A stretch of DNA of 34,685 nt from Candidatus Dormiibacterota bacterium (GCA_003131685.1 PKWB01000036.1:3846-38530), one strand, 5' to 3'. Shown: positions 1-20,595, counted from the first letter of the stretch. Notes: generated from the letters alone by a model not told the origin. Numbers and translations are program-made.

Positions 1-1
1 G

Positions 2-1174
2 GCGGCCGCGGGTCTTGTCAGCGTGGTCACGTTACTCCTGCTGGTCGGGGCCTACGTGAGCGTGCCGGCGGCGACGATCCCGCTGGGAGCGGTCGCCGCG
101 GGCCTCGGCCTGGTTGCACTCGTCCGCGCCGGGGCGCGGAGACCGGCATCTCGCGCAGTCCCAGTGGCAGCGATCCTGGCAGGGGTGGCGACCTTGGGCA
201 TGACCGCGGTCATGGCATCGACGGGCGCCGAGATCCAGAGCATCGCCTGTCCGACCCTGAGCAACTGCGTTGGGGTCGGCTGGGCCCCAGGGGGCGGATT
301 CGTCGTACCGGTGATCAATGGCACTCGGGGGAGCGTCATGTCGATCCCTGGATCCGACGCGCTGAGCAGCATCTCATGCCCGACCGCGACCCGTTGCATT
401 GCCGTCGGGTCGGGGTCCGGCAATGATCGTGGGGTCCTGGTGACCCTTGGCAAGGCGACGTCACGCACCTGGACCTTCGGCCCCGTGCAACGCGTTGCAA
501 CCGCCCTCAACGGGATCGCGTGCCCTTCGATCACCCGGTGCGTGGCTGTTGGTGATGGCGCGGTGGTGATCGCGGCGGGCGGTGCTCTTTCCCTTCAACG
601 GTTACCAGCCCAAGTCACCTTGGACGCAGTTGCGTGCCCGACGCCCGACGAGTGCGAAGCGGTCGGAGCGATCAATCCCGACGCTGACAACGGCCCAGCC
701 GTTTGGCTCGCTATCAGCAACGGCGTCATCGGCCCCGTCAACCGCGTCCACGGATCGAATTCGCTGGACGCGATCGCATGCCCGTCGGCGACAACATGCA
801 TAGCGGTGGGCCAAGGAAATCAGTCGATCACTCTGTCTGGGACCGTCGCGGGCGGGACCTTCACGTATTGGGGGACGGTCGGAGCGGCGCTGCCGATAAC
901 CAATGGGGTAGCCGGCGGGTCGCAGATGATGACCGCCATCACGAACGGAGGATCGATCTCCTGCCCTACGCAAGACGTCTGTGTCGTGGCGGGCAGTGCG
1001 ACGGGCGAAGCAGCTCCTAACCCCGCATTGCTGGTACTAAACGATGGGCGGATCGACGCCACCAGCAGCTTGAGCGGCGGCTCCATGAACCCGGAAGTTG
1101 CGTGCGATTCGCACGCCTGTCTGGTCACAGGAGCGCCTCAGGACGAAGGCGTAACCACTCTGCCGACGCCGTGA
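2..1174 (+). CDS. Membrane-anchored Cys-repeat surface protein (probable 7-bladed beta-propeller), 5'-truncated by the window
   Basis: Frame is open from base 2. Hydrophobic N-terminal segments, then seven repeats of the form [SA]I[SA]CP[TS]xxxCx[AV]VG (QSIACPTLSNCVGVG to PEVACDSHACLVTG). Confidence 0.75.
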   Translation, partial: AAAGLVSVVTLLLLVGAYVSVPAATIPLGAVAAGLGLVALVRAGARRPASRAVPVAAILAGVATLGMTAVMASTGAEIQSIACPTLSNCVGVGWAPGGGFVVPVINGTRGSVMSIPGSDALSSISCPTATRCIAVGSGSGNDRGVLVTLGKATSRTWTFGPVQRVATALNGIACPSITRCVAVGDGAVVIAAGGALSLQRLPAQVTLDAVACPTPDECEAVGAINPDADNGPAVWLAISNGVIGPVNRVHGSNSLDAIACPSATTCIAVGQGNQSITLSGTVAGGTFTYWGTVGAALPITNGVAGGSQMMTAITNGGSISCPTQDVCVVAGSATGEAAPNPALLVLNDGRIDATSSLSGGSMNPEVACDSHACLVTGAPQDEGVTTLPTP

Positions 1175-1292
1175 CAGTCGTTCCGGACCGAAGCCACTTT
1201 TCCCATCGCATGCGGTCCCGGGAGACACGAGCCGACCGAGTCGAAGAACCGTGCAGCCGACCAAAACTCGACCCACCGAGATGATGGTGCGT

Positions 1293-1321
1293 CAGGCCAA
1301 CATGCGCCAACGTCTACTTGG
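1293..1321 (+). repeat. Dispersed intergenic repeat copy R1
   Basis: caggccaacatgcgccaacgtctacttgg matches 7970-7998 at 23/29 positions. Confidence 0.6.
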
Positions 1322-1410
1322 TTGTTTGGGTCGATCAGCGATGGGCCGCGGGGCGTGATGGACGGTGTCAAAGGCCAGTCGCCCTTCGCGGTTCACGCTG
1401 GTAGGAGGCG

Positions 1411-2025
1411 ATGGTGTTCCGACTAGGAGATCCAGATCCCTGGCACCTCAGCACGGACAACGACGTTGGCGTCAACTTCGTCGTGTCATGCCTGATCAAG
1501 GACGGCCTGCAGGTCGCCCCGTTCACCGATCATCCAGCCGGTGACGGGCAGTTGGAAGCGCTCGGCCTGAACGAGAAGATATGGAGAGACTGGCTTCATG
1601 AGGTTGTGCGGCGACGCGTCGCTGTCGAGCAAGCCTTCGCTGCTGGGGTGAGCTGGTTTCCGATCCCACACTTGCGAATGCCGAGGGGGAGCGGCAATCC
1701 GATGGATGTGCCCGGCGCCCTCGGCCCGGACGGTCCACTGAGGGCCGCAATTGCCCAACGATGGACGGCGTGGAGGAGTAGGCCAGACAGGCTATCTGCT
1801 CCGGGTGAGATGCCTGAGGCTCTGGGCCCCGGTCTCTACAACGAGTTCCGGAGCTCGCGCCCACGACCTCCATATCTATCGGTTCACTTGGCAGACTACC
1901 CGTCCGTCGCCGTAGAGCCCGTTCCACCGGGCTCGCTCGTGGTGGGCCGTCCAGTGCCGACTGATGACGTGTCATACGCTTCGGTGATTCGTCGCGGATT
2001 CGCGCTGCTCGTACATGCCAGGTAG
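1411..2025 (+). CDS. Hypothetical protein (204 aa)
   Basis: ORF preceded by AGGAGG (start may be GTG 1414). Protein-like composition; no family recognised. Confidence 0.65.
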   Translation: MVFRLGDPDPWHLSTDNDVGVNFVVSCLIKDGLQVAPFTDHPAGDGQLEALGLNEKIWRDWLHEVVRRRVAVEQAFAAGVSWFPIPHLRMPRGSGNPMDVPGALGPDGPLRAAIAQRWTAWRSRPDRLSAPGEMPEALGPGLYNEFRSSRPRPPYLSVHLADYPSVAVEPVPPGSLVVGRPVPTDDVSYASVIRRGFALLVHAR

Positions 2026-2145
2026 CGGACAAGCACCGCTCGATTCTCGGGTCAACAAACTACTCCCGTGCCAGCATCGCCGTAGCGTTCGCATTGGCGT
2101 GGGGCTGAGGAGCCGCCCGACACCTCAAGAAACGGTTGCTCATTC

Positions 2146-2165
2146 CAGGCCAGGGTCCGCCAATG
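2146..2165 (+). repeat. Dispersed intergenic repeat copy R2
   Basis: caggccagggtccgccaatg, identical over 20 bp to 7970-7989. Confidence 0.85.
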
Positions 2166-2196
2166 ATGCCAGAGGCTAAAGCTCAACCAGCCTCCC

Positions 2197-2700
2197 TCAG
2201 CGGAGAGGCAGTCGGTAGCGGAGGTCGGTGGGCGGATGAGTCTGGCGGGTTCCGTCGGGTTTCCAATCCAGTCGTTCGTAGAAGGCCCTGGCGCCCTGAT
2301 CCGTCTCGAGAACCCACAGGGTCGCTGTTTGCGCGCCGCCTTGGCAAAGGTGGCCCACCGACGCGGTGAGTAGTGATCGCCCGATCCCAATTCTCTGTCG
2401 TGCTGGGTGCACGTAAAGCCGGTGGATCTGTCCCACTTCCTCGGTGTTGTGATCATGGTCTTCACTCGGGCCGTACTGGCATAGGCCGACAATCCGCCCA
2501 CCGGATCTGGCGGTCAGTACCCCGCCACCTCGGTCAGTCTGAGAGCGCACAATCTCGCCCCAATCGCGGACAGAATGCGCGACGAGTCGCTCGCAGTACC
2601 ACGCCTCGGGCGCATAAGGCCGATACGTCACCTCCCAGGTAAGGAGATGCAGGTCTCGCAGCGCCTCCGCGTCGGCCGGGTCTGCGTGTACGAGCTCCAC
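2197..2700 (-). CDS. GNAT family N-acetyltransferase
   Basis: Motif A LYVHPARQRIGIGRSLL and LWVLETDQGARAFYERLDW. Likely start GTG 2700 (the ORF extends to ATG 2754). Confidence 0.9.
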   Translation of the reverse strand: MELVHADPADAEALRDLHLLTWEVTYRPYAPEAWYCERLVAHSVRDWGEIVRSQTDRGGGVLTARSGGRIVGLCQYGPSEDHDHNTEEVGQIHRLYVHPARQRIGIGRSLLTASVGHLCQGGAQTATLWVLETDQGARAFYERLDWKPDGTRQTHPPTDLRYRLPLR

Positions 2701-2826
2701 GGCTTCAGGTTGACAGAATGGGTCGAAGAACGTGATGGTGGCGCAGGCGAGCATCGTCTCTCTAGAGCCGATTGAACACCTGGGCGCGGTCGAGTGCGGG
2801 CCAAAATAGCTACGCCGCGTCTCGCC

Positions 2827-3555
2827 CTAATCGCTGTCGCTCAGGATCCTCCCGTCGCTGAGAACAAGAGTGCGGCCGCAACGTCTGGCGATGCTCGCAT
2901 CGTGGGTGGCGACGATAAGCGTGAGCCCCCGTTCAGTTCGCAGGCGGTCGAGCACAGCGACAATCTCGGTGCCGGTATGAGTATCCAGGTTGCCGGTCGG
3001 CTCGTCGGCCAACACGATGCCAGGATGATTGATGAGCGCCCGAGCGATGGCCACGCGTTGTTGCTCGCCGCCAGACAGCTGCGATGGTAGGTGTTTCACG
3101 CGATCTCCAAGCCCAACTGCACCGAGCAATTCGCGTGCACGAGCCACCTTGTCAAAGTCAGTACGATACGGAAGCACTGGGGCCAGAACGTTATCCAATG
3201 CGGTAAGAGCCGGAAGCAGATGGAAGCGTTGGAACACGAACCCGATGCGCCGGCGCAATGCGGCTCTCTCCGAGTCGCGTAAGCGCGCGATGTCGGTGCC
3301 GTCGATTGTGATTTGACCCTCGTCGGGAACATCCATCGCGCCGATCAGGTGAAGGAGAGTCGACTTCCCTGAGCCAGACCGTCCTGTGAGCGCGAGGCTG
3401 TGTCCCGGCAGGATGTCAAGTGTCACCGCGTCAACAGCGGTGACCGATTCGCTACCGCCACTGCGATAGGTCTTGCTCACGGCGACCAGAGATACAGCCA
3501 GACCCTCGTGCTGGCTTCGCGTTTGGTAGGACAGCTCTCTGTCGTTCGTATCCAC
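2827..3555 (-). CDS. ABC transporter ATP-binding protein (LolD/MacB type)
   Basis: Walker A GRSGSGKST, signature LSGGEQQRVAIARAL, LADEPTGNLD, ATHD. Confidence 0.95.
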   Translation of the reverse strand: MDTNDRELSYQTRSQHEGLAVSLVAVSKTYRSGGSESVTAVDAVTLDILPGHSLALTGRSGSGKSTLLHLIGAMDVPDEGQITIDGTDIARLRDSERAALRRRIGFVFQRFHLLPALTALDNVLAPVLPYRTDFDKVARARELLGAVGLGDRVKHLPSQLSGGEQQRVAIARALINHPGIVLADEPTGNLDTHTGTEIVAVLDRLRTERGLTLIVATHDASIARRCGRTLVLSDGRILSDSD

Positions 3556-3562
3556 GTCGACG

Positions 3563-6346
3563 CTACTCTTCGGCGAGGGTCGCCGCCAGAGGCAGGCGCT
3601 GGAGGGTCGTGGCCACGATGCTCGCTGCGACGACCGTCACTAAGATCCCGGCGACGAACGCCGCGACCGCAGCCGCTGCGAGGAGGGAAAGGTCAGCACC
3701 GAGTATCACTTCCGCGATCCCCAGTCCAAGTACAGCGCCGAAGAAGCTTCCCGCGATGCCAATCCCGACACCCTCGCCGATGGCGACTCGAGCCACATGC
3801 CCACGGCGCCAGCCCACGGCGCTGACGACCGCGAATTCCGAGGCGCGCTCGCGCAGGTTGATGTAGAGCACGTCCGCAACCGAAGCGGCGCCCAAGATGA
3901 TGGCGAGTGACGCGGACAGGTAGTCGACCGCGCGCACCTGGTTGGCTACGAAACCCCCGAGAGCGCTGCCGACGACACCCTGATCGAATGCCAGATTGAG
4001 CGCGAGCAGCACCGTGAGCGCGGCGATGCCCACTGCGAGCGCAGCCGCGGCGAGCGCGGCTCGAGCTGGCGCGCGGCGCAGGTTGACGAGCGCCAGCCCG
4101 GCGATATGCCGCACCGGATGAGGCCGTCGCGGTGCACGTACCGCGGGTGCCACCGCGTCGAGCGGCTGTCCATGCGCAGCTAGCAACGCCGGAACGAGAC
4201 CGGAGAGTCCCGCAAGGAGAATCGCCACGGGGATGACCAGGCCGACTCGCCACCAAGGAACCTCCAAACGAAGCAGGGCAATCAACAGAGCCGAGAGCCC
4301 CGTACCCACCACACCGGCCACAAGGCCAGTGAGCATGACCTCACCGAGAGTGAACATGAAAATCATCCTTCGCGGCCAACCCAAACATCGCAGCACACCG
4401 ATCTCCGTCCGTCGAGCTCGCACCGCGGCGAAGGCTGCATTGGCAAGGAAGAATCCGCAGACAATCAAGATCAGCACGAACAGAGCCAGGCTCTTGCCGT
4501 CGACTGCGTTGAGGATCACCAGAGCGACCGCCTTCCGAACCCACGATTCGCTCAAGGTTAGGGCTGGCCGCCCGTAACTCCCGGCCGGGAGCGCAATCGT
4601 CTCGGTGGTCGGGGAAGATCCTGCCGTGATGTCTACATCCAGCCCCGTCGCTTGACGGATCGCAGCCGCGACGTGCCCAATCTGTGCGAGCTGCTGGCGG
4701 ACGCTGCCATGCAACCCGCCCACCCGTACACGGACGACACTGATCGGCGCCGTCGCGTTGACCGTCGGGAAGTCCTGCTCGAATGCCGGCAATGCGTCGA
4801 GGGTGGTCAGGATGAGCGGCGGCTGCTGAAGGTAGCCAGCCATATTCGCGTTCGGGAGTAGCGGCTGGTTGCCGAGCGCCTTTTGGCTCGCTGCGTCGGC
4901 ACCGGTGACCTGGGGTGGGTAGTACGTTTCGAGCGGGACCTGTGATAGCGCGCTGAACCCGGGCAACTTACTTGGATCGAATTCGCCAACGGTGTGGAGG
5001 GTTAACAGGTGCTCACTCGTATTCGTCCGGAGTTCTTCGTTGAGCTGTCGAAACCCCAGGTCAGTTGAGTCGATCGAGGCTGCTTCATAGCCGGTGTCCG
5101 CGAACAGGCTCGAAGTCCATACGCTGCTGGGATTGGTCACCGGAAGAGGCGTCAGTTGCCCACCGGACAGCTGTCGGTAGGAGGTGGGGCCGCTGGTCCA
5201 ATACGCGTCCACGCCCGACAGCTGCAACGGGTCCGAGAGGATCTGCTGGTACGCCTGCTGCGCGGTGATGGTGACTTTCTCAACAGGGGTGGCCCTTTCT
5301 TTCGCCAAAGCCGCGGCCAGCTTGTCTGGGAGCAGTCCTTGGTGCAGCAGATCTACTGCCGAGGCGGGTAACCGGTTGACGGTGATTTGATCGGTGTCGT
5401 CGACGAACGGGTTCGTGGTAGCCAGCACAGGGACTTGCAACAGCGGCGCGAGCGACCCAACCGTCGGTTGCGATCCTATTGCAAGGGCACTGTCGGCAGG
5501 GCGTAGATATCTTCCACTCGTCACAGCATTGCCGAGCCCAACCAGCTGCTGCTCCGCAACCGGGTCGATCGCCGCGACCAGCATCGGAAACACGACATCG
5601 ACATAGCCGCCCACGTGCCCGGGTGGCAGTTGAACCGGAGCAGTGTTGGCGGTCAAGTCTTGGCGTGACCAGCAGGATCCGTCTTGAGCCTGATAGTCGG
5701 CGAAGGGCGAGGTGAGATTGGGCACGTGAAGATAGCTCGGACAGACGGTGACCTTTTGTCCAGTGGGAAGCACCTCGGTGCTCCCCCCAATTACGGTGGT
5801 AGGTGTGCCGATGAAGCTGGTGCCGGGCCCTCCCTGGGGCGCCAGTTGATCATTGGTCACGTACACGTACCCGATAGAGGAAGGCGGGAATCGAGTCAGC
5901 CCTCGGTCGGTCGTCCGATTGTCGGTAAGAGTGAGCACCTGCGAACCGGCAGACGTCAGAACGTTGGTCACATCTATGGGGACTCGCACGTCCTGCAAGA
6001 TGTAACCGATCATCGCGATCGGTGCTGCGAGCTGTACCCCAGACATCTTCTGAATTTGTGCATATTGTTGGAAGGTGATGCCGCCGAAGATTCCTGAAAG
6101 GTAGTTGTCCCGGACCAGTCCTTTGCTCGCTTCGAGTGGTGTGGTCGAGCCGGGCGGGCGCACCAGAATGTCGTAGGCGGGTCGGAGGTTCCGCGCCACT
6201 GTGCCCTGCACTTGAGCGGTGCTGGTCGTGGTCGCCGCAGTCAAGAGGGAGAAGCTCACCGACGCCACCAGGATTCCCGCAGCGACCGCTGCCGCCCGAC
6301 CACGGCGGTGCACCAACTGCGACCAGAGCGCTCGCAGCATCACCAT
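3563..6346 (-). CDS. FtsX/MacB-like ABC permease with large extracytoplasmic domain
   Basis: N-terminal TM, a long soluble region, then two FtsX-type units (RRTEIGVLRCLGW; ERASEFAVVSAVGW). Lies 7 bp upstream of the ATPase. Confidence 0.9.
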   Translation of the reverse strand: MVMLRALWSQLVHRRGRAAAVAAGILVASVSFSLLTAATTTSTAQVQGTVARNLRPAYDILVRPPGSTTPLEASKGLVRDNYLSGIFGGITFQQYAQIQKMSGVQLAAPIAMIGYILQDVRVPIDVTNVLTSAGSQVLTLTDNRTTDRGLTRFPPSSIGYVYVTNDQLAPQGGPGTSFIGTPTTVIGGSTEVLPTGQKVTVCPSYLHVPNLTSPFADYQAQDGSCWSRQDLTANTAPVQLPPGHVGGYVDVVFPMLVAAIDPVAEQQLVGLGNAVTSGRYLRPADSALAIGSQPTVGSLAPLLQVPVLATTNPFVDDTDQITVNRLPASAVDLLHQGLLPDKLAAALAKERATPVEKVTITAQQAYQQILSDPLQLSGVDAYWTSGPTSYRQLSGGQLTPLPVTNPSSVWTSSLFADTGYEAASIDSTDLGFRQLNEELRTNTSEHLLTLHTVGEFDPSKLPGFSALSQVPLETYYPPQVTGADAASQKALGNQPLLPNANMAGYLQQPPLILTTLDALPAFEQDFPTVNATAPISVVRVRVGGLHGSVRQQLAQIGHVAAAIRQATGLDVDITAGSSPTTETIALPAGSYGRPALTLSESWVRKAVALVILNAVDGKSLALFVLILIVCGFFLANAAFAAVRARRTEIGVLRCLGWPRRMIFMFTLGEVMLTGLVAGVVGTGLSALLIALLRLEVPWWRVGLVIPVAILLAGLSGLVPALLAAHGQPLDAVAPAVRAPRRPHPVRHIAGLALVNLRRAPARAALAAAALAVGIAALTVLLALNLAFDQGVVGSALGGFVANQVRAVDYLSASLAIILGAASVADVLYINLRERASEFAVVSAVGWRRGHVARVAIGEGVGIGIAGSFFGAVLGLGIAEVILGADLSLLAAAAVAAFVAGILVTVVAASIVATTLQRLPLAATLAEE

Positions 6347-6785
6347 GTGCGATCACCGACGCTATCTGAGGTTTCGAGCATCGACCTCACAAGGCAGGTC
6401 TTGGCGCGACGCCAGCAAGATCAGTGCTGAGGGTCGGTGCTTTGCCGCGAGCAGGTTCCGGCATAACAGCAGCGTAAGACCATCCACCAATAAAGTGGAG
6501 TGCGTCATGAGTGACGTAACCGTCAGCGGCGGCGCCACGCTCCAATAGCTCTGATCGTTGCACCGGGCACTACGCTGCTGCCATCACAGGTCTGGAGGGT
6601 AGCGTTCACGGTTCCTGACCGCCCATCGGCGCCCGTGGCGACGAGAACCCCTCAACCGATTGCCAGAGAACGTCGACAGCAAACATGGTGATCTTTGGCA
6701 AACCATCCTGGGTGCCGAGTCCATGCGGCCCGAGGACAGGTCATACGTACCGGGACGCCGGATATCAGCGTCGTGAAGTTGTGTT

Positions 6786-7922
6786 GTGCCCACACGGGCG
6801 ATCGATGCGTGGAGAATCGCAAGCGTGGGCGCGGAAGGTACGAACGCAAGCCACCACCGCTCTCGGTGGGTCCCGGCGGCGGGGCTGGGCGCGATCGCTA
6901 TCCTCGTCGCGGGGGTTGGATTGGCGATCGCCGCAGCGCAGCGTCCCCGAAGTCCTTTGATTCCGCCGCCACCCACCGCCTCAGCGACGCCATCCCCCTT
7001 CCCCACCCCGCCGGCGGCTGGTCCGGTCACGGCGTTGGGTGCCAGCGTCGCCGACGATCCCGCCATGCACCGGGTCGTGCTCTTCGGCGGCGTCGACAGC
7101 ACCAACAAGACGTGGCTCTGGGACGGTCGTCACTGGACGTCGACGACTCCGCCAGGTGGCCCACCAAACCGATTCGGGGCTGCGGCGGCCTACGACCCCG
7201 CGACCCGTGTCGTCATGCTCTTTGGGGGCAGCGGTTCCCTTGTCGGCCAGGCGGCTCCGCAATTCAATGACACCTGGGCCTGGAACGGCATCACGTGGCG
7301 TCGCCTGAACAGCGGAGGTCCGACGGGGCCGTTCGTCGGTGATGGAGGCCAGATGGCCTGGGACGCTGCCCGAGACGAGATGGTCCTGGTCACGTCCGCC
7401 GGGACTTTGACTGATGGGGAGACATGGATCTGGGACGGGACCCGGTGGGTCCGCGAGGTGCATGGCGACCTCGCGGCGATCGTCGTTGACGGCACTATGA
7501 CGTATGACCCGGTTACACAGACAGTGCTGCTGGTCACCCCTGCAATAGCGAACAATCTGCATACCGCGACGTTTGCCTGGAATGGGTCCACATGGCATGT
7601 GCTCGTGCCTGACGGACCTCAGTTTGACGGGCTTGCTGTGGACGAACAACTCGGTCGGCCGGTCGCGTGCGGGTCAACAACATCCTCAGCGGCCTTCGCG
7701 GTGCAGGCGAGCTGCTGGGAATGGGCGACCACGGCTTGGTTCCCGCTCCAAACAGCTTTTTCAACAAGGTCGGCGCGGGAGGTGTCAGTCGCGGCAGAGG
7801 TTGACGACGTTGATCGCGCCCAGTTGCTGCTGATCGGGTGGCTGGTCCCACCCGTTCAGAATCAAGCACAGCCGCTGTACGTCTGGGCGTGGGATGGCGT
7901 CACATGGAGGCTGGTGGCCTGA
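6786..7922 (+). CDS. Membrane-anchored Kelch-like (TWxWDGxxW repeat) protein
   Basis: TM anchor, Pro/Thr linker, six W-rich repeats (TWLWDGRHW, TWAWNGITW, TWIWDGTRW, TFAWNGSTW, CWEWATTAW, VWAWDGVTW). Alternative start GTG 6825. Confidence 0.85.
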   Translation: MPTRAIDAWRIASVGAEGTNASHHRSRWVPAAGLGAIAILVAGVGLAIAAAQRPRSPLIPPPPTASATPSPFPTPPAAGPVTALGASVADDPAMHRVVLFGGVDSTNKTWLWDGRHWTSTTPPGGPPNRFGAAAAYDPATRVVMLFGGSGSLVGQAAPQFNDTWAWNGITWRRLNSGGPTGPFVGDGGQMAWDAARDEMVLVTSAGTLTDGETWIWDGTRWVREVHGDLAAIVVDGTMTYDPVTQTVLLVTPAIANNLHTATFAWNGSTWHVLVPDGPQFDGLAVDEQLGRPVACGSTTSSAAFAVQASCWEWATTAWFPLQTAFSTRSAREVSVAAEVDDVDRAQLLLIGWLVPPVQNQAQPLYVWAWDGVTWRLVA

Positions 7923-8553
7923 GGCTCGGACGGCAACGCTGGGCCACTTGCGGCGAGATAAACGCTGTGCAGGCCAGGGTCCGCCAATGTCTACGTGGGT
8001 GCCCGGTGTGCGCCAGGATCTGTGCGACCACCTGGGCTTTGGCATCGGCGTACTCCTGCATGTAATTCCAATGCGACGCTGCCAAGGCGCACTTGGTGCT
8101 CTCATAGAGGTTGCGATCGCCATGGTCCCGGCGCAGCTGATCGCGGAAGGCGACGAGTCGGTCTACCTCGCCGCAGTCAGCTGGGAAGACGTGGAGATTC
8201 ACACGATCCCGGATCCGAAGTACCCGGTGCTGATACCAGTCTGGTTCGCGGATACGGAGTGTGTACCCAAGTGATTCAAGCTGCGGCACATAGGAGCTTT
8301 CATCGCCGGGGTTGGGCACGACGAGTGCGATATCGATGATTGGCTTGGCAGCAAGACCCGGGACGGACGTCGATCCGACGTGCTCAATCAAGAGTGCGTG
8401 ATCGCCCAAGGCCGAGAGTATCCGATTTGCCTCACGCTCGTAATCCTTTGCCCATGCCGGGTCGTAATTGGCAAGGTGGACCGGGCCGTCCAGCCGGCTT
8501 CTACCACCGATCCATTCCGCGCGCTCGCCTTGTCCCGCCACCGCATCACTCAC
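7900..8553 (-). CDS. GrpB/UPF0157 family protein (nucleotidyltransferase-like fold)
   Basis: YDPAW, IEHVGSTSVPGLAAKPIIDI, NLHVF, FRDQLR, Y.DAK. Start GTG 8553 inferred. The C-terminal tail runs through repeat R3. Confidence 0.9.
   Translation of the reverse strand: MSDAVAGQGERAEWIGGRSRLDGPVHLANYDPAWAKDYEREANRILSALGDHALLIEHVGSTSVPGLAAKPIIDIALVVPNPGDESSYVPQLESLGYTLRIREPDWYQHRVLRIRDRVNLHVFPADCGEVDRLVAFRDQLRRDHGDRNLYESTKCALAASHWNYMQEYADAKAQVVAQILAHTGHPRRHWRTLACTAFISPQVAQRCRPSLRPPASM
7970..7989 (+). repeat. Dispersed repeat copy R3
   Basis: Identical to 2146-2165. Confidence 0.85.
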
Positions 8554-8592
8554 AACAGCATTCTCCACCCTGCCGTGGCGACGAGCCTGGTC

Positions 8593-8612
8593 CAGGCCAG
8601 GATCCGCCGATG
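8593..8612 (+). repeat. Dispersed intergenic repeat copy R4
   Basis: caggccaggatccgccgatg, 18/20 to R2/R3. Lies between the divergent grpB and deaminase genes. Confidence 0.8.
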
Positions 8613-8687
8613 TCCCGCGAAAGGATCCTCGCCGCCTCAGTTGCCCCTCGCAGACGTCCGCGACCGGGCTTCGCTCAGAATCGGCCC

Positions 8688-9116
8688 GTGAACGACGAAC
8701 TCGACGCACCGGATCTTGCGCTTGTGCAGCGCGCGGTAGATCTCGTTAGGCAGCGCGGCAACGGAAGCTCCAACACGGTGGCCGCGGCAGCTCGCGCGAC
8801 AGACGGACGGGTCATGGCCGGCATGAACGTCTACCACTTCACCGGTGGGCCTTGTGCCGAACTGGTTGTTCTTGGCATGGCTGCGTCAGAGGGATTGGAG
8901 CGGCTGGAGATCATCGTCGCCGTCGCGGATGGTGATCGCGGCATCCTGGCTCCGTGCGGTCGGTGCCGGCAGATCCTGTTTGACTATCAGCCGGGTATAC
9001 GGGTGATCGTCACGGCCGGCGGCGCGCCGAGGGCCGTGGGCATCACTGACCTCCTGCCAAATGCAAATCGATGGAGTGCCGCATCGGGAACGCTCCCAGC
9101 TTTGCATCCAGCCTAG
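8688..9116 (+). CDS. bsd: Cytidine deaminase family protein, blasticidin-S deaminase (BSD)-like
   Basis: Zn motifs PCAE and PCGRC. NVYHFTGGPCAELVVLG and RGILAPCGRCRQ match my recollection of fungal BSD. Start GTG 8688. Confidence 0.85.
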   Translation: MNDELDAPDLALVQRAVDLVRQRGNGSSNTVAAAARATDGRVMAGMNVYHFTGGPCAELVVLGMAASEGLERLEIIVAVADGDRGILAPCGRCRQILFDYQPGIRVIVTAGGAPRAVGITDLLPNANRWSAASGTLPALHPA

Positions 9117-9696
9117 AACGATTCCCGCCTATCGCCAGGACCCTCAGGCAGGCGAGCGTCCTATCACTCGACCCATAATTGGCCGCCACCGGCGCTCACG
9201 GCAGTCGTGCCACAACCTACCTTCAAGTCCGTCTCAAAGAGCCTGAAATACGTTGGCCCATAAGCCGTCTGCGGCCGATTCTGTATTCGAAATCGCCGAT
9301 TTTCCGGCTGGCATCTTGGTAAGACGTATGCCGCGAGTTCAATCTCACCTTGGGCTCAAGTCTCTTCCAAGAGCATCATGGTCGTGGGATGGCCGAGAAG
9401 ATGCGGCAGATACAGATGCACGCAGAGACCAGCACCAGGAATCCGATCCCATCAGTACCCCACGCGTCCCCTACAGCACCGTCAGCCGGCACCAGGCAGC
9501 GGAACACAGCGTCACCGGCAACGTGTCCGCCGAATACGCGATGAGCGGGCTTGTCCCGCGATGAAACGCGCGAATGTTGCAGCCGGGTTCTCAAAACCGG
9601 CGATCTCGACATCCGTAGGTTCCAGTGACGAAAGAGCGACCTCGCAGATGAACCTGAGGTTGCAGCAAGGAACGCGACCCTCCGGGGGTGCTTTCT

Positions 9697-10617
9697 CTAC
9701 TCGACCTTGTGTGCGCGCAGGAATGCTTTCGCACGGCGCAGGGTCCCGCGGCCCTGCTCCACGAGGGGGCGCATGCATGCGACCTGACGCTCGCGCTCGG
9801 CAGGGGTGAGCGCTTGATGCAATGCCTCGTCCAGGGTGGGCGATAGCGGATTGCCCGAACTGTTCAGATACTGCACCCAGTCCTGCGGGACTTGCCGACC
9901 GATCTCCACTTCGTAGCTCAGATGGATCTCACCAAAGCCGGTCCTCCCCGCGATCGCAACAAGGTCACGCTCGTCGAAGTCCATCATGGGCGCAAGCGCT
10001 GGTGCCCTCTCATCAAACACCGCTTTGACCTTCGCGAGGATCGTTTCGCCGACCGCTCGTAGGTCGTAGCCATCGAAGACGCCTGGTGGCTCAGGGAACG
10101 TGAACGAGTTGATCGGCTCGAATATGGAGAGACGGCCGCCTGGCCGAAGCACGCGATGAAACGCTGCGAAGGCGCGCTCCTTCGCAGCGACGTAGATGAG
10201 CACCGAGCGAGTCGTTACCACGTCGATGCTCGAAGAGGCAATCGCCGTCAGGCCGTCCGCCGACGCCTCCACAAACTCGCAGCGCGACAGAACTTGGGCG
10301 CCGTCCGCCGTGGCCCGGCATCGATCCAACAGATCGCGCGAAGGGTCGCTGAAGATGACGCGACCCTGTTCGGAGAGGCGCTCAAGTGCACCAAAGCCGA
10401 TGAGCCCGTCCCCGCACCCGACGTCGAGCACAACGTCGTCGGGCTGCAGCCGCGCCCCGTCAAGGACGCGGTCGCGGACACCGCGCAGCCATTCAAGGGC
10501 CTCACTGGGCAGCTCGGAGCCACCCTGACGGCGAAAGAGAAGCCACGCTGCCCAGCGATCCAGTACCTCGGTCGAGGAGGCCGCCGCACCTCGTGGTTCA
10601 TTCTGATCATTCGCCAC
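9697..10617 (-). CDS. Class I SAM-dependent methyltransferase
   Basis: VLDVGCGDG, IDVVTTRSVLIYV, RVLRPGGRL. Confidence 0.9.
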   Translation of the reverse strand: MANDQNEPRGAAASSTEVLDRWAAWLLFRRQGGSELPSEALEWLRGVRDRVLDGARLQPDDVVLDVGCGDGLIGFGALERLSEQGRVIFSDPSRDLLDRCRATADGAQVLSRCEFVEASADGLTAIASSSIDVVTTRSVLIYVAAKERAFAAFHRVLRPGGRLSIFEPINSFTFPEPPGVFDGYDLRAVGETILAKVKAVFDERAPALAPMMDFDERDLVAIAGRTGFGEIHLSYEVEIGRQVPQDWVQYLNSSGNPLSPTLDEALHQALTPAERERQVACMRPLVEQGRGTLRRAKAFLRAHKVE

Positions 10618-10699
10618 GATCAGATGATGACCGACTACCGGCGCCGGATGAGCCGACCGCCACGAGCGCCCACCCGTCGATCACATAAGCACGGGCTTG

Positions 10700-11128
10700 T
10701 TATTCACAGCCTGAGGCTACGGCGGCTTCAGCTATCGCCCGCGCGATCACTGTGCGGTAGTCCGGGTGCGCAAGTGATAGTCCGAATAATTCATCGGAAC
10801 TGCACCAGCGCAGCTCATCGTGTTCGTCGGGAGCGCAGTTGGTGACTTCGCCTGTCCAATCCGTCACCAACCAGATCGCCAGTTCGAAGCTGGGTCCATG
10901 TTTTGTGAGCGGGCGGAGCCGTGCGATGGGCTCGGTCACAGGCCGGGGAACACTCACGCCGATTTCCTCGCTCAGTTCGCGAAGAAGTGCGTCAGTCTCA
11001 GACTCGCCCGGGTCGACATGTCCTCCCGGTAAATCCCAGACGCTGGGATACGAGCTGCGCTCCGCGGTGCGGTGCCCCAGAAGGACACGCTCGCCTTGAA
11101 TCAAAGCTCCGGCCACGATTCGATCCAT
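10700..11128 (-). CDS. NUDIX hydrolase (MutT-like)
   Basis: Nudix box GGHVDPGESETDALLRELSEEIG. Confidence 0.92.
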   Translation of the reverse strand: MDRIVAGALIQGERVLLGHRTAERSSYPSVWDLPGGHVDPGESETDALLRELSEEIGVSVPRPVTEPIARLRPLTKHGPSFELAIWLVTDWTGEVTNCAPDEHDELRWCSSDELFGLSLAHPDYRTVIARAIAEAAVASGCE

Positions 11129-11231
11129 GCCTCAGACTTCAACACACATCGCCCATGCGAGTGCGATGGCCGCAGGCTCGCTGAATGGCGACCGCGGTCC
11201 GGGGGCTAAATAGGGCATCGCGTCAGCATGC

Positions 11232-11251
11232 CCGGCCAGGATCCGCCGACT
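11232..11251 (+). repeat. Dispersed intergenic repeat copy R5
   Basis: ccggccaggatccgccgact, 17/20 to R4. Lies between divergent NUDIX and tetR. Confidence 0.7.
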
Positions 11252-11284
11252 ACACACCCGGTGCCCTCGACCCTCGTACCGTCG

Positions 11285-11316
11285 TATACTGATCGAATGA
11301 TCAAGTCAAATGATCA
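11285..11316 (+). promoter_or_regulatory. -10 box (TATACT) and probable TetR operator half-sites
   Basis: TATACT sits 6 nt before ATG 11297. TGATC-gaat-GATCA and TGATC-N9-GATCA inverted repeats overlap the start. Confidence 0.55.
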
Positions 11317-12091
11317 GATTACTGCGATATCGAAGCCAAAGGGCGAGCGGCGTCGACCCGGAGATTCCCGCCCGAATATTCCGCGCGCATCCACGGCGAC
11401 ATATGGCAAGCACCCGCTCAGCGCCGGCGTCCACAAGCGGCGTCAGCGGCGCAACGAGGCTGGTGATGAGATGCGGTCGCGCATCGTGGACGCGGCGTTG
11501 CGCACCGTGGTCGGTGGGGGCTATGCCTCGACATCGGTGCGCTCGATCGCCGCCACCGGTGGATTCAGTCCCGCGCTCGTGTTCTATCACTTCGGCAGCG
11601 TCGACGCGCTCCTCCTGGCGGTGCTCGATCGGGTCAGTGCCGATCGCCTCGCCCGCTACGAGACACGGCTCGCAAATGTCTCGGACCTGCGCGCGCTGGG
11701 AGCCGCAATGGAGGAGTTGTACTCTGAGGATCTCCGTCTCGGCCAGCTAACAGCTGTACAGGAAATTGTCGGGGCGATGGCGTTCGACCCTGTGCTCGGC
11801 GACGAGATCGGCCGCAGGATGCAGCCCTGGGTGACCTTTGCCGAGCAGCTCGCAGCCCGGATCATCGCTGGCTCGCCACTCGCGGGTTTCGTCGAGCCTG
11901 CCGTCATTGGCTCGGCGGTGATCGCCCTGTATATGGGGCTCGAAATCGTTGCGCGGATGCGCGGTGGTGACAGCAGTGGATCGAGCGCGCTGATGGCGAC
12001 GCTGGTGCAAGCGGCACCCTGGATCGATCAGCTGCTCAGTAAGGCAACGCCTGCGCGGCGGCGTCCGGCCACAACGGTGGCCATCGAGTGA
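11297..12091 (+). CDS. TetR/AcrR family transcriptional regulator
   Basis: RIVDAALRTVVGGGYASTSVRSIAATGGFSPALVFYHFGS HTH. Start is ATG 11297 (leaderless) or 11471. Confidence 0.92.
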   Translation: MIKSNDQITAISKPKGERRRPGDSRPNIPRASTATYGKHPLSAGVHKRRQRRNEAGDEMRSRIVDAALRTVVGGGYASTSVRSIAATGGFSPALVFYHFGSVDALLLAVLDRVSADRLARYETRLANVSDLRALGAAMEELYSEDLRLGQLTAVQEIVGAMAFDPVLGDEIGRRMQPWVTFAEQLAARIIAGSPLAGFVEPAVIGSAVIALYMGLEIVARMRGGDSSGSSALMATLVQAAPWIDQLLSKATPARRRPATTVAIE

Positions 12092-12693
12092 CGAGGAAGA
12101 CTGTCGCGGTTGCGCTGTCGGCGACCGCCGGCTGTGCGGCGATCTACGTCACGGTTGTCCTCGAAGCCCACCAGCATCAACCCGTGTACGCCATGCCCAT
12201 CACAGTGGTGATCGTCGCCGGAGTCTGCGCGGCGCTCACCGCGATCGGAGGTCTTCTCTCAGTTCGCTCCGGCCAGCTGGCGCCATGGCTCGCACCGGTT
12301 GCGACCGCGATCATCATGTACGGGTTCCTTGTCGCGGGCACCTTGATCCTGCTTCCGGCGATTGTGCTCATCGTGCTGGTATCCCGCCGGACGCAGTCCA
12401 GCCGCCGACGTGAACACGACTGGTTGAACGCCGGAGCAGCCGTCCTGCTTACCCTGGGACTCGTTCCCCTTGGTCTGCTGGCGCTCTGGGATCAACCCGT
12501 CGTGGAGTGCTTTCCGGGAGGGGTGTCACTAGCGGCGCCGATCTGGACGTCGTTTCAGTCAACCAGCGGGCACAGCGGTGCCTCGAGCTCGTCGTCCACG
12601 CCGCAGCAATCGTCCGGTGCCATCACGGCTGGAGGCGTGACCTACACATTCACGTGCAGCGGCCCTCACCTGGTCCGGTTCGCGTCGGGGTAA
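12088..12693 (+). CDS. Hypothetical membrane protein
   Basis: Several TM segments; GTGA overlap with the tetR stop; Cys pair in the C-terminal extracellular part. Confidence 0.75.
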   Translation: MTRKTVAVALSATAGCAAIYVTVVLEAHQHQPVYAMPITVVIVAGVCAALTAIGGLLSVRSGQLAPWLAPVATAIIMYGFLVAGTLILLPAIVLIVLVSRRTQSSRRREHDWLNAGAAVLLTLGLVPLGLLALWDQPVVECFPGGVSLAAPIWTSFQSTSGHSGASSSSSTPQQSSGAITAGGVTYTFTCSGPHLVRFASG

Positions 12694-12715
12694 GGCTCCT
12701 CAACGAGCCGAGTGA

Positions 12716-12735
12716 GTTAAGCGGATGTTGGCAGC
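12716..12735 (-). repeat. Possible degenerate repeat copy R6
   Basis: Minus strand gctgccaacatccgcttaac; only the core gccaacatccgc matches. Confidence 0.3.
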
Positions 12736-12842
12736 AGCGAACTGAGCGATTCATCCCCCATTTGAGTAAGAACGTCCCTGTATGTTCAGTACGGCCCTGG
12801 GACAAGGCCAATCAGCACCCCTATCTCAGCGAGGGATTGAAA

Positions 12843-13799
12843 TCATCGTCCTGCGAATTTCTCGAGCGCGTCATATACGTGCTCGTTCATCGTGTCGCTG
12901 CCCTTGTGACCTGAATCCGCGACGACAACGAGACGCGCGTCGGGCCAAGCACTTGCAAGCTCCCAAGCCGTGCTTAGAGGGCAACTCAGATCGAGTCGAC
13001 CATGGACCAGCACGCCTGGAATGCCGGCTAGGCGCCGCGCGCCGGCGAGGAGAGCGCCCTCTTCGAGCCATGCGCCATTCGAAAAGTATCGTGTGGTGAT
13101 ACGTACGAATGCGAGCAGGTCCGCCGGTGGGCGGACGCTGTAGGGGTTTGGTTTGCCGCTCGGCTCCAGAGAGAGCACGGCATCTTCCCAGGTGCCCCAG
13201 TCAATCGCCGCTCGGGTTCGGACTTCCGGGTTCGAATCCTCCATGAGCCTCGCGTACGCCGCCACGATGTCGCCGTCGCGGTCGGCCTCGGAAGCGCCAG
13301 CGCGAAACTGCTCCCATTCCTCGGGAAAGAACCGCGCAACACCGCGATAAAGCCAGTCGGTCTCCGAACGCCTGGTCATGGTGACGCTGCAAATGACGAT
13401 CTCCGACACCCGCTCCGGGTAACGTTCGGCATAGGCGAGGATCAGAGTGGACCCCCAGGAACCGCCAAAGAGTAGCCAGTGGTCGACTCCCAAATGGTGC
13501 CTCAAGCGTTCCATGTCAGAGATGAGGTGGTCCGTTGTGTTGCGGCTCATGTCAGTAGCGGGATCGCTGGCATGCGGAGTGCTGCCGCCGCAGCCGCGTT
13601 GGTCAAACTGAATGATTCGATAACGGCCGGGGTCAAGCCACTGACGCTGTCCTGTGGAGAGTCCCGATCCGGGTCCACCATGAACAATGAGCGCCGGCTT
13701 CCCAAACGGGTTGCCGCAGAGCTCCCAGTGGACGAGATTGCCGTCGCCCGTGTCGAGTAACCCTTGCTCGAATGGATCTATCGGCGGGTAGCGCGGCAC
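12843..13799 (-). CDS. pip: Proline iminopeptidase (alpha/beta hydrolase)
   Basis: HGGPG, FDQRGCG, nucleophile GGSWG, GRLDL, DSGH. Confidence 0.93.
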   Translation of the reverse strand: MPRYPPIDPFEQGLLDTGDGNLVHWELCGNPFGKPALIVHGGPGSGLSTGQRQWLDPGRYRIIQFDQRGCGGSTPHASDPATDMSRNTTDHLISDMERLRHHLGVDHWLLFGGSWGSTLILAYAERYPERVSEIVICSVTMTRRSETDWLYRGVARFFPEEWEQFRAGASEADRDGDIVAAYARLMEDSNPEVRTRAAIDWGTWEDAVLSLEPSGKPNPYSVRPPADLLAFVRITTRYFSNGAWLEEGALLAGARRLAGIPGVLVHGRLDLSCPLSTAWELASAWPDARLVVVADSGHKGSDTMNEHVYDALEKFAGR

Positions 13800-13813
13800 T
13801 GGTGGATTCTACA

Positions 13814-13833
13814 TGTCGGCGAATACTGGCTTA
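13814..13833 (-). repeat. Degenerate repeat copy R7
   Basis: Minus strand taagccagtattcgccgaca, 14/20 to R4/R5. Abuts the pip -10 box TAGAAT. Confidence 0.45.
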
Positions 13834-13849
13834 GGGTGCCTGTGGAGTA

Positions 13850-14412
13850 TCACGAGGAGGCGCCGTGGGCCAGCCAATCCGAGCGGGTCGTCCGCCACAC
13901 GTCTTGTACCCCAGTTTCGTTAGGTGCCTGAATCGGCTTCGTCTGCTGGCCGACGAGCGTGAACCCTAGCTTGCGCGGCACTCCTTGACTAGCGTGGTTC
14001 AGGTGATCGCAGTGGATCTCGACCAGCTCAACTTCCGGGAATGAAAATGCCAAGACCACGAGCATTGCGGCGGCGCGGGTCGCGTGACCTTTGCGCGCAT
14101 ACGCTGCGTGTACCCAATAGCCGATCTCGAGTCCATCTGGCCCGAGGCGGCGATGAAGCCCGCATCCACCGACGATGACGGTCCCAACGAACATGCCGAA
14201 GACCATGTCGCCGCCTGTGCGGCGCTCCTTCGCCCATCGGGCATCATCGATTGGCGGTCAGCGAGGGACCGTGGCTCCGTTGCGATCCAAGACATCCATG
14301 GCCGCAGGTGTTCGATGCTCTCAGCGATGGCGACGCTGAGTGCATCCGCGTCGCCAGTTCGCCACGGTCTGATAGCAAGCGTTTGCACAGCCAATTCGGT
14401 CATCCTCGGCAT
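13850..14412 (-). pseudogene. RimJ/RimL-type GNAT acetyltransferase, frameshifted near 14243
   Basis: N-half (IRPWRTGDADAL..EHLRPWMSW) and C-half (EIGYWVHAAYARKGHA..N.ASQGVPRKLGF) are in different frames. Restoring 1 nt gives the continuous ..QSMxARWAKERRTGGDMVFG.. Confidence 0.85.
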
Positions 14413-14444
14413 AGCATCGGGGGACGAAGCTGCTTAGTTCGGCG

Positions 14445-15110
14445 TTACAAGAGTGAGGCTCTCTCGCTGTTGGACGAACAGGTCAGGTCGTGGAGCGCGA
14501 TACGGACGTCATCGGTCGACCGAACGTGGACCGCCTGCATCCCGGCCGCTCGCGCGCCCATGACGTTCTCGAGAGTGTCATCAAAAAAGATGAATGCCGA
14601 AGTCGGAAACCCTGCGCCTTGGGCTACTTCTCTGAACGCATCGGGGTCAGGCTTGCGAAGGCCAAGTTCCGACGAGACGAAGATCGAGCGGAAGACCGAT
14701 AGCTCAAGTGCGTAGCGCGTGGCCCATACAGCCTGATGGGTCGGGTTCGAATTGGTAAAGGCGTACAGCGGTAGGCGTTCACTTGCCGCGGCCAACGCCG
14801 CTCCCACTCCAGGCAGGGGTCCGACGTAGAGTTCACCCCAGCCAGCGATGAAATCTTCGTCAGAGAGATCGATACGCAAGCTGCGGCGCAAGGATGCGAA
14901 GTAGCCCGCGGCGTCAAGCGCGCCTCGCTCGTGCTGCTCATATGCATCGTCGAACTTGAATCGTCGACGAATTACCTGGGGGTCACAGGACGCGCGAGCA
15001 CCCCAGGCGAGGAACACGCGGTCGAAGTCAATCTCGAGGACTACCCCGCCAAGATCGAAGAGTAGTGCTCGTGCCGGCCCGGTGTCGCCGCTGCTATCTG
15101 CGTCGTCCAT
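14445..15110 (-). CDS. HAD family phosphatase (YihX-like)
   Basis: LFDLGGV, FTNSN, LRKPDP, FFDD. Confidence 0.9.
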   Translation of the reverse strand: MDDADSSGDTGPARALLFDLGGVVLEIDFDRVFLAWGARASCDPQVIRRRFKFDDAYEQHERGALDAAGYFASLRRSLRIDLSDEDFIAGWGELYVGPLPGVGAALAAASERLPLYAFTNSNPTHQAVWATRYALELSVFRSIFVSSELGLRKPDPDAFREVAQGAGFPTSAFIFFDDTLENVMGARAAGMQAVHVRSTDDVRIALHDLTCSSNSERASLL

Positions 15111-15145
15111 ACGACGACTCTCGCATAGCTGTTGCCTTCACCTGT

Positions 15146-15601
15146 TTACAACGTGCTACTGGGCGGGTTGAAAAACGCTAAAGCCTGCTCGTAGCGTTGG
15201 ATTCTCTCGAGGACGTCTGACCTCGGCGACAGGCTCCTGTTATTGCGAAGGTTGTCACGTAGATCGGCAACCTTTACCAGCGTTGCCATAGGGTCTGTCG
15301 CGACTCGCTCGATGTATGCGGCATAGGTTTCGCCATCGCGGCGGGTGAGGCAATCCACCGCGTGGATGACCGGTCGTGGATAGCCCGCGCTTTGAAGGTC
15401 AACAAGGGTCACGTCTGTGTCTTCGATTACGTCATGGAGAACGGCCGCCATCCGCGCGTGGGCACCCTCGACAGCGCACATGACGCGAAGGGGATGCAGG
15501 ATGTACGGTTCGGGCTCGGGCGACGGATACTTCTGACCAGCATGCGCGTCGACAGCGCACGCGATTGCTCGTTCAAGCAAGTCCTGGGTACCGTCGTCCA
15601 T
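15146..15601 (-). CDS. HD-domain protein, SpoT/Mesh1-like small alarmone hydrolase
   Basis: AHAGQ, PYILHPLRV, AAVLHDVIEDT, VKVADLRDN; single domain. Start ATG 15601 or GTG 15610. Confidence 0.85.
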   Translation of the reverse strand: MDDGTQDLLERAIACAVDAHAGQKYPSPEPEPYILHPLRVMCAVEGAHARMAAVLHDVIEDTDVTLVDLQSAGYPRPVIHAVDCLTRRDGETYAAYIERVATDPMATLVKVADLRDNLRNNRSLSPRSDVLERIQRYEQALAFFNPPSSTL

Positions 15602-20446: not shown

Positions 20447-20521
20447 CGAATTCGATTCTCAGCATGGACGCGCGCCATCGCGCTGCTCACTCGGTTCCTC
20501 CACGGTAGACTTGAAACAGAC

Positions 20522-20595
20522 GGCGATGGAGCTCGCCGAAACCGCCTTCGTGACTGATGGCTCCTGTTCACGGCCCTAGCTGGGAGAACAGGAGC
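20522..20595 (+). ncRNA. Fluoride (crcB) riboswitch RS1 with expression platform
   Basis: GGCGATGGAGCTCGCC..AAACCGC..CTGATGGCTCCT; pseudoknot GGAGC/GCTCC. GCTCCTGTTC(20560-69) pairs with GAACAGGAGC(20586-95), hiding the SD. -10 TAGACT at 20506. Confidence 0.9.

Follow-up and report, generated by a model that had tools for sequence, protein, structure and literature searches.

A direct repeat as the probable joint of non-integron gene-cassette arrays in a family of Dormibacteria

What does a short repeat do that recurs, always in one orientation, at gene boundaries in the accessory region of a bacterial contig? The question is raised by a stretch of 34,685 nucleotides from Candidatus Dormiibacterota bacterium (GCA_003131685.1 PKWB01000036.1:3846-38530), here called the window and numbered from its first letter. 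A preliminary description of this stretch offered two answers for its repeat of about 20 bp: recombination sites of a gene-capture system other than an integron, or a regulator-binding site. Comparison with related genomes revealed co-oriented arrays of the repeat, units that recur among arrays, and homology breakpoints within the site itself, and so upholds the first answer. With moderate confidence, we conclude that the repeat is the joint of a lineage-specific, non-integron gene-cassette array, served by a site-specific recombinase encoded in trans.

Four of the window copies stand on firm statistical ground. The 20-mer CAGGCCAGGGTCCGCCAATG is found perfectly at 2146 and 7970 and with 18 of 20 positions matching at 8593, all on the plus strand; matches with at most three mismatches number 3 in the window, against 0.02 expected from shuffles. 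Copies were also scored with a position weight matrix (PWM) built from 266 sites in other genomes, which spans positions -21 to +28, counted with the first C of the core as 0; the control was the reversed window, whose top score was 1.8 bits. By core start, the scores are 37.7 bits (2146), 36.0 bits (8593), 35.4 bits (7970) and 23.2 bits (1293). The copy at 1293 has three mismatches to the wider consensus and is a genuine diverged copy, because its score far exceeds the control maximum. The preliminary description had listed these four, and also copies that find no support: that at 11232 scores -2.8 bits, inside the background, with five mismatches to the consensus, and two on the minus strand match the exact copy at only 10 of 20 (12716-12735) and 12 of 20 (13814-13833) positions, both scoring at most -7.4 bits (-7.4 bits at 12735; 13833 falls outside the top 22). 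The TetR block that adjoins these doubtful copies has orthologues in genomes G031 and G003, with no site nearby. Window copies are alike over about 22-25 nt, and flanks past about 25 nt are unrelated. Two decayed sites, at 2744-2766 and 9145-9175, were overlooked earlier because each has an internal deletion; each lies exactly at the end of cross-genome unit homology. The first keeps core positions 0-11, has lost about 7 nt, and resumes at position 19. The sites divide the left part of the window as follows.

1272..1321, plus strand: site S1, diverged copy, core 1293-1313 (PWM 23.2 bits)
1293..2145, plus strand: unit U1, orphan open reading frame (ORF) 1411-2025 (+), no Pfam family
2125..2174, plus strand: site S2, core 2146-2166 (exact 20-mer, PWM 37.7 bits)
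2146..2743, minus strand: unit U2, GNAT acetyltransferase, ORF 2197-2754 (-) (Pfam PF00583, 3.8e-15)
2744..2766, plus strand: decayed site S3 (from alignment with orthologous GNAT units; PWM alone -3.5 bits)
2767..7969, minus strand: large unit or units U3, with ABC ATPase 2827-3555 (-), FtsX permease 3563-6346 (-) and unknown ORF 6786-7922 (+) (Pfam)
7949..7998, plus strand: site S4, core 7970-7990 (exact 20-mer, PWM 35.4 bits)
7970..8592, minus strand: unit U4, grpB, GrpB domain at about 8011-8484 (-) (Pfam PF04229, 8.5e-47, residues 76-233 of ORF 8709-7900)
8572..8621, plus strand: site S5, core 8593-8613 (18/20, PWM 36.0 bits)
8593..9144, plus strand: unit U5, cytidine/deoxycytidylate deaminase-like gene, frame 8610 or 8689 to 9116 (+) (Pfam PF00383, 1.1e-06)
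9145..9175, plus strand: decayed site S6, internal deletion in the core (from the sequence)
11232..11252, plus strand: doubtful copy of the preliminary description (its R5), excluded from the sites (PWM -2.8 bits)

The repeat is neither a chance recurrence nor a genome-wide element like the repetitive extragenic palindromes (REP). The window's own genome (G000; 3.78 Mb in 210 contigs) carries the exact 20-mer variant on the window contig only. PWM matches of at least 8 bits number 15 in this genome, against 3 in its reversed control, and are clustered on few contigs, one of which (C35) has a second small array of three co-oriented sites. The scan of this genome and its relatives thus found clusters, not the spread through the core genome that would mark a REP-like family. 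REP elements and bacterial interspersed mosaic elements are palindromes spread chromosome-wide; the site here is non-palindromic and its copies are clustered in the relatives.

How far does the repeat extend beyond this genome? Allowing at most two mismatches, the site pattern is found in 31 of 36 further genomes from the window's genus and in 2 of 24 genomes of a sister family (a tally that includes the unpublished G044), the latter being the level of the reversed-pattern control. The reversed pattern gives isolated matches only, none of them among same-genus genomes. Among 401 genomes drawn from the phylum, clustered matches are confined to the window's family, where they fall in genera g1, g10 (G184) and g15 (the unpublished G336 alone), and singletons are found elsewhere. 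A species-genome collection yielded 82 exact-match loci; about 65 are titled Candidatus Dormibacterota (Dormibacteraeota) metagenome-assembled genomes, and the remainder are scattered and near the roughly 13 calculated as the chance expectation. A single match in viral contigs lies within an AAA_25 gene, as do similar matches in two metagenome loci, and all were rejected as chance or coding look-alikes. On one metagenome contig (L187:346-1179) the unit right after a perfect site encodes a rolling-circle replication protein (PF23343, 5.9e-15), a single case.

Alignment of 125 sites defines a site of about 50 nt, with a near-invariant core, CAGGCSAGSRTCCGCCAATGT, followed by seven semi-conserved positions, MSCYNGA. 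Upstream conservation is weak (-21 Y, -20 C, -18 R, -17 G, -14 A, -5 T, -3 G, -2 C). The left arm, TNGCNCA (positions -5 to 1), is weak and the right arm, TCCGCCA (10 to 16), strong; between them is an 8-bp centre. The variable positions 2, 5, 8, 11 and 14, and then 22, 25 and 28, have a period of three, with the phase shifting across the ATG; no reading frame through the site is enriched, despite this period. The site was also considered as a translation start and rejected, with 36 ORFs opening at the core ATG vs 34 and 39 in the other frames (n = 169).

In relatives the sites form long arrays, with 36 sites on contig C12 of G016, 28 on contig C3 of G004 and 27 in the closed chromosome of G018; that arrays are also found in closed long contigs such as the latter argues against an assembly artefact. 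At 17 loci, 200 of 203 sites have the orientation that prevails at their locus, and the median spacing is 661 bp (interquartile range 456-1009). Units (median 0.66 kb) usually hold one gene, in either orientation: Pfam-supported genes run along the site orientation in 7 cases and against it in 11, and the longest ORFs are divided 63 plus to 66 minus. The GC content of units is 62.8%, and that of flanks 61.3-65.3%. The majority of small ORFs in the arrays have no Pfam family. Cargo recognized in relatives includes WapI, Imm74 (twice), Imm5-like, Tdi1_C, DUF6869, DUF7660, SHOCT, GNATs, glyoxalase, pentapeptide, Kelch, DinB/MST, SnoaL, MFS, ABC, methyltransferases and ECF sigma; the immunity genes (WapI, the two Imm74, Imm5-like and Tdi1_C) are a minority of the units with any Pfam match. 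A set resembling a cyclic-oligonucleotide-based antiphage signalling system (SMODS, SAVED-TIR, ThiF, JAB) adjoins the largest array (L022:14083-18386, on G016:C12).

Do the units move, and if so, where are they joined? Positions 1-15200 of the window were compared with 42 genus genomes, and blocks of homology start or stop at sites. Positions 1-2062 are 92% identical to G064:C4:546816-548883, after which the units there differ. At S2, homology of the GNAT unit with G034, G003, G008 and G009 begins at 2146/2147, and the GNAT block 2146-2773 is 93-95% identical in arrays of G034, G003, G008 and G031, where its neighbours differ; at the position of decayed S3, the orthologous GNAT units of G031 and G008 have a full site. 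G016 has three copies of the ABC/FtsX block 2809-6339, on C7, C12 and C14, at 83-86% identity; a site precedes the C7 copy. At S5, homology with G016:C22:159001-159564 (97%) begins at 8593; this deaminase block, 8593-9157, lies within an array in G016:C22, and the homology stops at 9157, within S6. Units compared at the repeats thus recur beside new neighbours, with the breakpoints falling in the site. The window arrangement across 2146 and 8593 is bridged by contigs of an independent study. At S4, no stop codon follows the GrpB domain, and the frame continues for 36 more codons across the site into the end of the preceding unit (7900-8011, minus strand); the original end of grpB may have been removed or exchanged at the joint.

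Sorting 167 units into families gave 21 with members in at least two arrays, and none of 13 testable adjacencies recurs. Unit order is non-collinear between arrays, so that differential loss alone is insufficient as an explanation, and polarity relative to the site is retained in 43 of 46 alignments. Flank sharing among 270 sites located the joint itself: in 15 independent clusters the members have only the right flank in common, in 6 only the left, and no pair has both. Identity in right-sharing pairs is at background through position -1 and high from 0 onward; in left-sharing pairs it stays high as far as -8 and has fallen to background by 8-9. The likelihood of a boundary common to the 21 clusters peaks at core positions 3-5, with 0-9 within about 7 log-likelihood (lnL) units; placing it beyond position 15 is worse by more than 24 lnL, and at 19/20 by 38 lnL. 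From the identity profiles and this likelihood, we conclude that the 28-nt head of the site moves with the right-hand unit and the weak 21-nt tail with the left-hand unit. In an alignment of five GNAT units the left flanks are unrelated and the right side diverges after about 11 nt of the next site; an early crossover estimate of 5-8 from these five was superseded by the 21-cluster range of 0-9.

Is this an integron that has gone unrecognized? The preliminary description had noted no attC structure and mixed gene orientations, and both remarks are borne out: we found no hairpin, no IntI and genes facing both ways. For the site's own reverse-complement 12-mer, the mean best match is 7.54 upstream and 7.47 downstream; no 7-mer of the site itself is found more than 7 times in the 125 sites; the sites fold with the same energy as control segments, and no pair of columns has Watson-Crick covariation. 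An attC-like palindrome suggested by eye for two copies, with inverted partners about 75 nt upstream, was given up after the 125-site tests gave no excess, and local hairpins (-21 to -17 with 23 to 27; -5 to -1 with 12 to 16) likewise, as covariation was none. None of 42 genus genomes has an IntI (TIGR02249) over the 265-bit cut-off (best, 110.5 bits), and the array-proximal tyrosine recombinases score 22 and 46 bits on this model. There is an integron-type array of discrete units between same-orientation sites, found in varied contexts; the co-oriented units with a shared promoter that are typical of integrons are absent, since genes face both ways. The system fails every defining feature of an integron except the array of mobile units.

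Sites of the dif type, in which inverted arms of 11 bp enclose a centre of 6-8 bp, were also considered. There is the weak 7-bp arm symmetry around an 8-bp centre, and the generic dif pattern is no commoner than its control in four genomes. A palindrome search with the right arm was rejected as evidence on the site, as it yielded an unrelated 10-6-10 palindrome. Perfect copies of it, ATTGGCTCTT, six bases, AAGAGCCAAT, lie at G003:C2:96356 and 97635, G006:C2:1652180 and 1653458, and G029:C1:1317649, twice in pairs about 1.28 kb apart (G003:C2, G006:C2); possible readings are the termini of a different small element, a recombinase site or an operator.

In an array, each site is an asymmetric duplex of about 50 bp, composed of one unit's tail of about 21 nt and the next unit's 28-nt head. 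In the mechanism that we propose, a recombinase encoded elsewhere in the genome would exchange strands at about core positions 0-9. A tyrosine recombinase is the most plausible enzyme, since the consensus resembles an arm-centre-arm core; the sites of the R64 shufflon are likewise asymmetric, with one conserved arm. Recombination of two direct sites would release a circular unit with one whole site, and the circle could re-enter any site of any array with its polarity constant. Because gene orientation is mixed, the genes of each unit presumably use their own promoter. The arrays store accessory genes, among them polymorphic-toxin immunity, small-molecule-modifying enzymes and efflux pumps, and an IS110-type insertion sequence (IS) lands specifically on the conserved right arm of the site.

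The recombinase was sought near the arrays. No tyrosine recombinase (PF00589) was found on the window contig (G000:C125), on G016:C12 or on G004:C3, and the flanks and gaps of more than 10 arrays hold housekeeping or cargo genes only. The earlier placing of the recombinase outside the window therefore agrees with what was found, as none lies on the window contig or at about ten array flanks. No serine recombinases were found near arrays, nor any in G004. Two tyrosine recombinases lie 4-8 kb from arrays, one in G018 and one in G019; neither is IntI, and the two are not related. As Xer-like genes occur throughout, their distribution is uninformative. The window's genome has 34 tyrosine-recombinase matches, vs 11-21 in relatives, and on its contigs C123 and C138 three to four such genes stand in a row, a tandem layout that we take to be that of recombinase-in-trio elements.

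Several results weigh against a dedicated site-specific system. No conserved recombinase is found at the array flanks of G018, G016, G004, G010, G064, G184, G014, G027 and G002. The G018-type tyrosine recombinase was rejected as a candidate, since it has orthologues in the site-less G029 and G007, was not found in the array-bearing G003 and G019, and is usually far from arrays. Symmetry between the arms of the site is weak and without covariation, and boundary estimates for single clusters are spread from -7 to +23, so that the crossover has no sharply defined position. Neither circular units nor excision joints were seen in assembled contigs of public runs, which had the arrangement of the window, gave no reliable joints (sides of at most 28 nt) and left no noteworthy part uncovered, and none of 79 metagenome loci has terminal repeats; the circular junctions that the preliminary description had proposed to look for did not appear in this material. 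Unit identity between species, 93-95%, is not above that of rpoB, 88-94%; because of this similarity recent transfer cannot be claimed, and an argument based on it was dropped.

The best surviving alternative needs no dedicated enzyme: the site would be kept for another function, such as protein binding or insulation, and short-homology recombination by RecA, possibly after natural transformation, would shuffle units through their 21-28 nt heads. Dedicated recombinases were not found in our searches, boundaries are scattered from cluster to cluster, and the GC content of units equals that of their flanks, which indicates exchange within the lineage; each of these would fit. Strict co-orientation and kept polarity are compatible with both this and the site-specific joint. 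What speaks against RecA is that the boundaries gather at core 0-9 and not at the best-conserved 10-20, with 19/20 worse by 38 lnL, and that heads of 21-28 nt with several variable positions fall at or below the minimum length usual for RecA exchange. We consider this explanation unlikely, while giving it some weight.

A second alternative starts from the only recombinase gene found repeatedly inside arrays. It was met beside a site in a metagenome locus, as an IS110-family DEDD transposase (PF01548 and PF02371), and relatives at 75-77% identity lie inside arrays of G010, G016, G015 and G002; matches are found in 18 of 42 genomes (E <= 1e-10). The IS-bearing loci are as follows.

L248, L249, L250, L252, L120, L030 (G010:C13, G016:C17, G015:C18, G002:C4, G016:C14); L148/L156

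The IS is about 1,315 bp, inserted at core 19|20, with its transposase always antisense to the site. Its left junction is identical in 7 of 7 copies, and the right junction is followed by core 20-28 in 5 of 7. A 226-nt non-coding region upstream of the transposase gene has short matches to both strands of both target halves, with predicted guide segments at positions 44-75 of the region. Judged by its sequence, the element is of the IS110 type, with a DEDD transposase, a long upstream non-coding region, no terminal inverted repeats, and a single insertion sequence and orientation. An Rfam scan of the IS loci gave no match. For seekRNA-guided IS110-type elements, a non-coding region that matches both target strands has been described, and members of the IS1111 group target attC (PMC11187229). 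The IS here is like those described there in its DEDD transposase, upstream non-coding region, and fixed point and orientation in a repeated recombination site, and differs in that its target is the Dormibacteria site, not attC or REP; it is probably RNA-guided. In G016:C14 a second IS110-type gene, 33% identical, has landed in the non-coding region of the first IS. Three decayed sites (2744-2766, 9145-9175 and the G034 copy in L115) each lack 5-7 nt of core 12-19, beside the IS insertion point; chance decay, an IS footprint and selection against IS landing are candidate causes.

Might such an RNA-guided DEDD recombinase (with a bridge RNA or seekRNA), either the array IS or a relative of it, move the units themselves through a guide programmed for the site? 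Its repeated presence in arrays, the matches of its upstream non-coding region to both site strands, and the report that cargo between IS ends can be moved (PMC11187229) would suit this. The IS lies, however, at 19|20 whereas unit boundaries lie at 0-9, and units have no IS ends; only the 18 of 42 genomes match, and G004, with its array of 28 sites, has just a fragment. We regard IS-driven assembly as quite improbable, and because the insertion point differs from the unit boundary we take the IS to parasitize the sites rather than to build the arrays.

That the repeat does no more than regulate the accessory genes, as an operator or the like, with the mosaicism due to unrelated processes, is very doubtful. 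The site is intergenic and a TetR gene is close by in the window, but the site is non-palindromic, shared-unit homology breaks within it, its core ATG is not enriched as an ORF start, and the IS targets it as a repeated sequence. The regulator-binding site offered by the preliminary description is disfavoured because the orientation is single whatever the gene direction (7 Pfam-supported genes same, 11 opposite) and because the copies are located at unit joints. Equally hard to credit are attachment-site scars of small integrative elements that entered successively, each with its own integrase: tandem integration does leave direct repeats at borders, and tyrosine recombinases are found within 4-8 kb of the arrays in G018 and G019, but most units are one small gene and carry no integrase, the two integrases nearby have no relation to each other, and there are up to 36 units per array and several loci per genome.

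Other features of the window lie outside the units. The gene at its left flank encodes a membrane repeat protein. To the right of S6, at 9215-9360, is an element of about 140 nt found at 82-93% identity in many genomes of the genus and on G000:C208. It is probably what the preliminary description took for a tRNA fragment, an identification that fails, since ARAGORN calls zero tRNAs; an Rfam scan of 9000-9600 was also empty. Since a tyrosine-recombinase frame (243 or 329 aa) is found 8-15 kb away from a copy in G026, G031 and G001, the element may be what is left of an integrative element's attachment site. Further right, a fluoride riboswitch (RF01734, 46.1 bits; 20513-20573, plus strand) is followed by two genes for MutS domain V (20601-22229 and 22226-23812), an unusual downstream context.

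How does the proposed system compare with known ones? To our knowledge, integrons are almost the only well-understood system that captures and stockpiles single genes. Integrons and clusters of attC sites lacking integron-integrases (CALINs) likewise have mostly single-gene units, sites in one orientation, units recurring across arrays, accessory cargo (acetyltransferases, glyoxalase-fold) and a site-specific IS parasite, and CALINs likewise have no neighbouring integrase. Unlike integron sites, the site here is conserved in sequence, has no hairpin or IntI, and travels mostly at the 5' end of its unit rather than the 3' end, with genes facing both ways. The GTTRRRY box is a feature of integron sites, and is not seen in the Dormibacteria site. 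The pdif modules of Acinetobacter plasmids are small gene modules between short sites, moved by the host XerC/D; the likeness lies in the small modules, the short recombinase-type sites and an enzyme encoded elsewhere, as proposed here. However, pdif sites are in inverse orientation around modules and have the 11-6-11 dif form, whereas the Dormibacteria sites are direct repeats and the generic dif pattern is not above control.

The rAID-1 arrays of Bacteroidales are described as orphan immunity genes with intergenic repeats 'reminiscent of integrons', thought active in gene acquisition, with a recombinase of the XerD family conserved at the array and a GC content that is skewed (bioRxiv 10.1101/471110). 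As far as that account was drawn on, the conserved repeat between units and the immunity genes among the cargo are shared, and the arrays here differ in having no adjacent recombinase, no GC skew, and cargo broader than immunity genes. Polyimmunity loci are tandem heterogeneous immunity genes, variable between close strains and sometimes beside XerC/D-like recombinases, reported only from some proteobacteria, Bacteroidetes, Firmicutes and Actinobacteria (PMC3482391). They are described there by gene content, mostly as one locus per genome, and the portion of the account used here mentions no conserved joint site (PMC3482391); they may have an adjacent Xer-type recombinase, and the Dormibacteria arrays are without one. 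A search of titles and abstract openings found no description of integrons or cassettes in Dormibacterota, and a wider search for non-integron cassettes returned integron papers only.

The arrangement, cassette arrays on site-specific joints, therefore has its counterparts elsewhere, and the machinery stands a fair chance of being new. Whether one family of Dormibacteria has a second, independently evolved cassette platform is to us an evenly balanced question. Such a platform would have an unlinked recombinase of a type so far unconnected with cassette capture, a duplex site defined by its sequence and carried mostly at the cassette head, a store of immunity and detoxification genes in either orientation, and its own RNA-guided parasite of the IS110 type. 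If this is true, cassette platforms evolved more than once, and a phylum known from metagenomes only would provide a second site logic, and possibly a new recombinase-site pair. The IS110-type element at its fixed site position would be a natural case of a (probably RNA-guided) IS specialized on a cassette joint, in parallel to IS1111 on attC. Since integron finders look for attC structure and IntI, they are blind to such arrays, and similar systems may be overlooked elsewhere. For the uncultured soil bacteria that carry them, the arrays would give a handle on how immunity and detoxification genes are traded.

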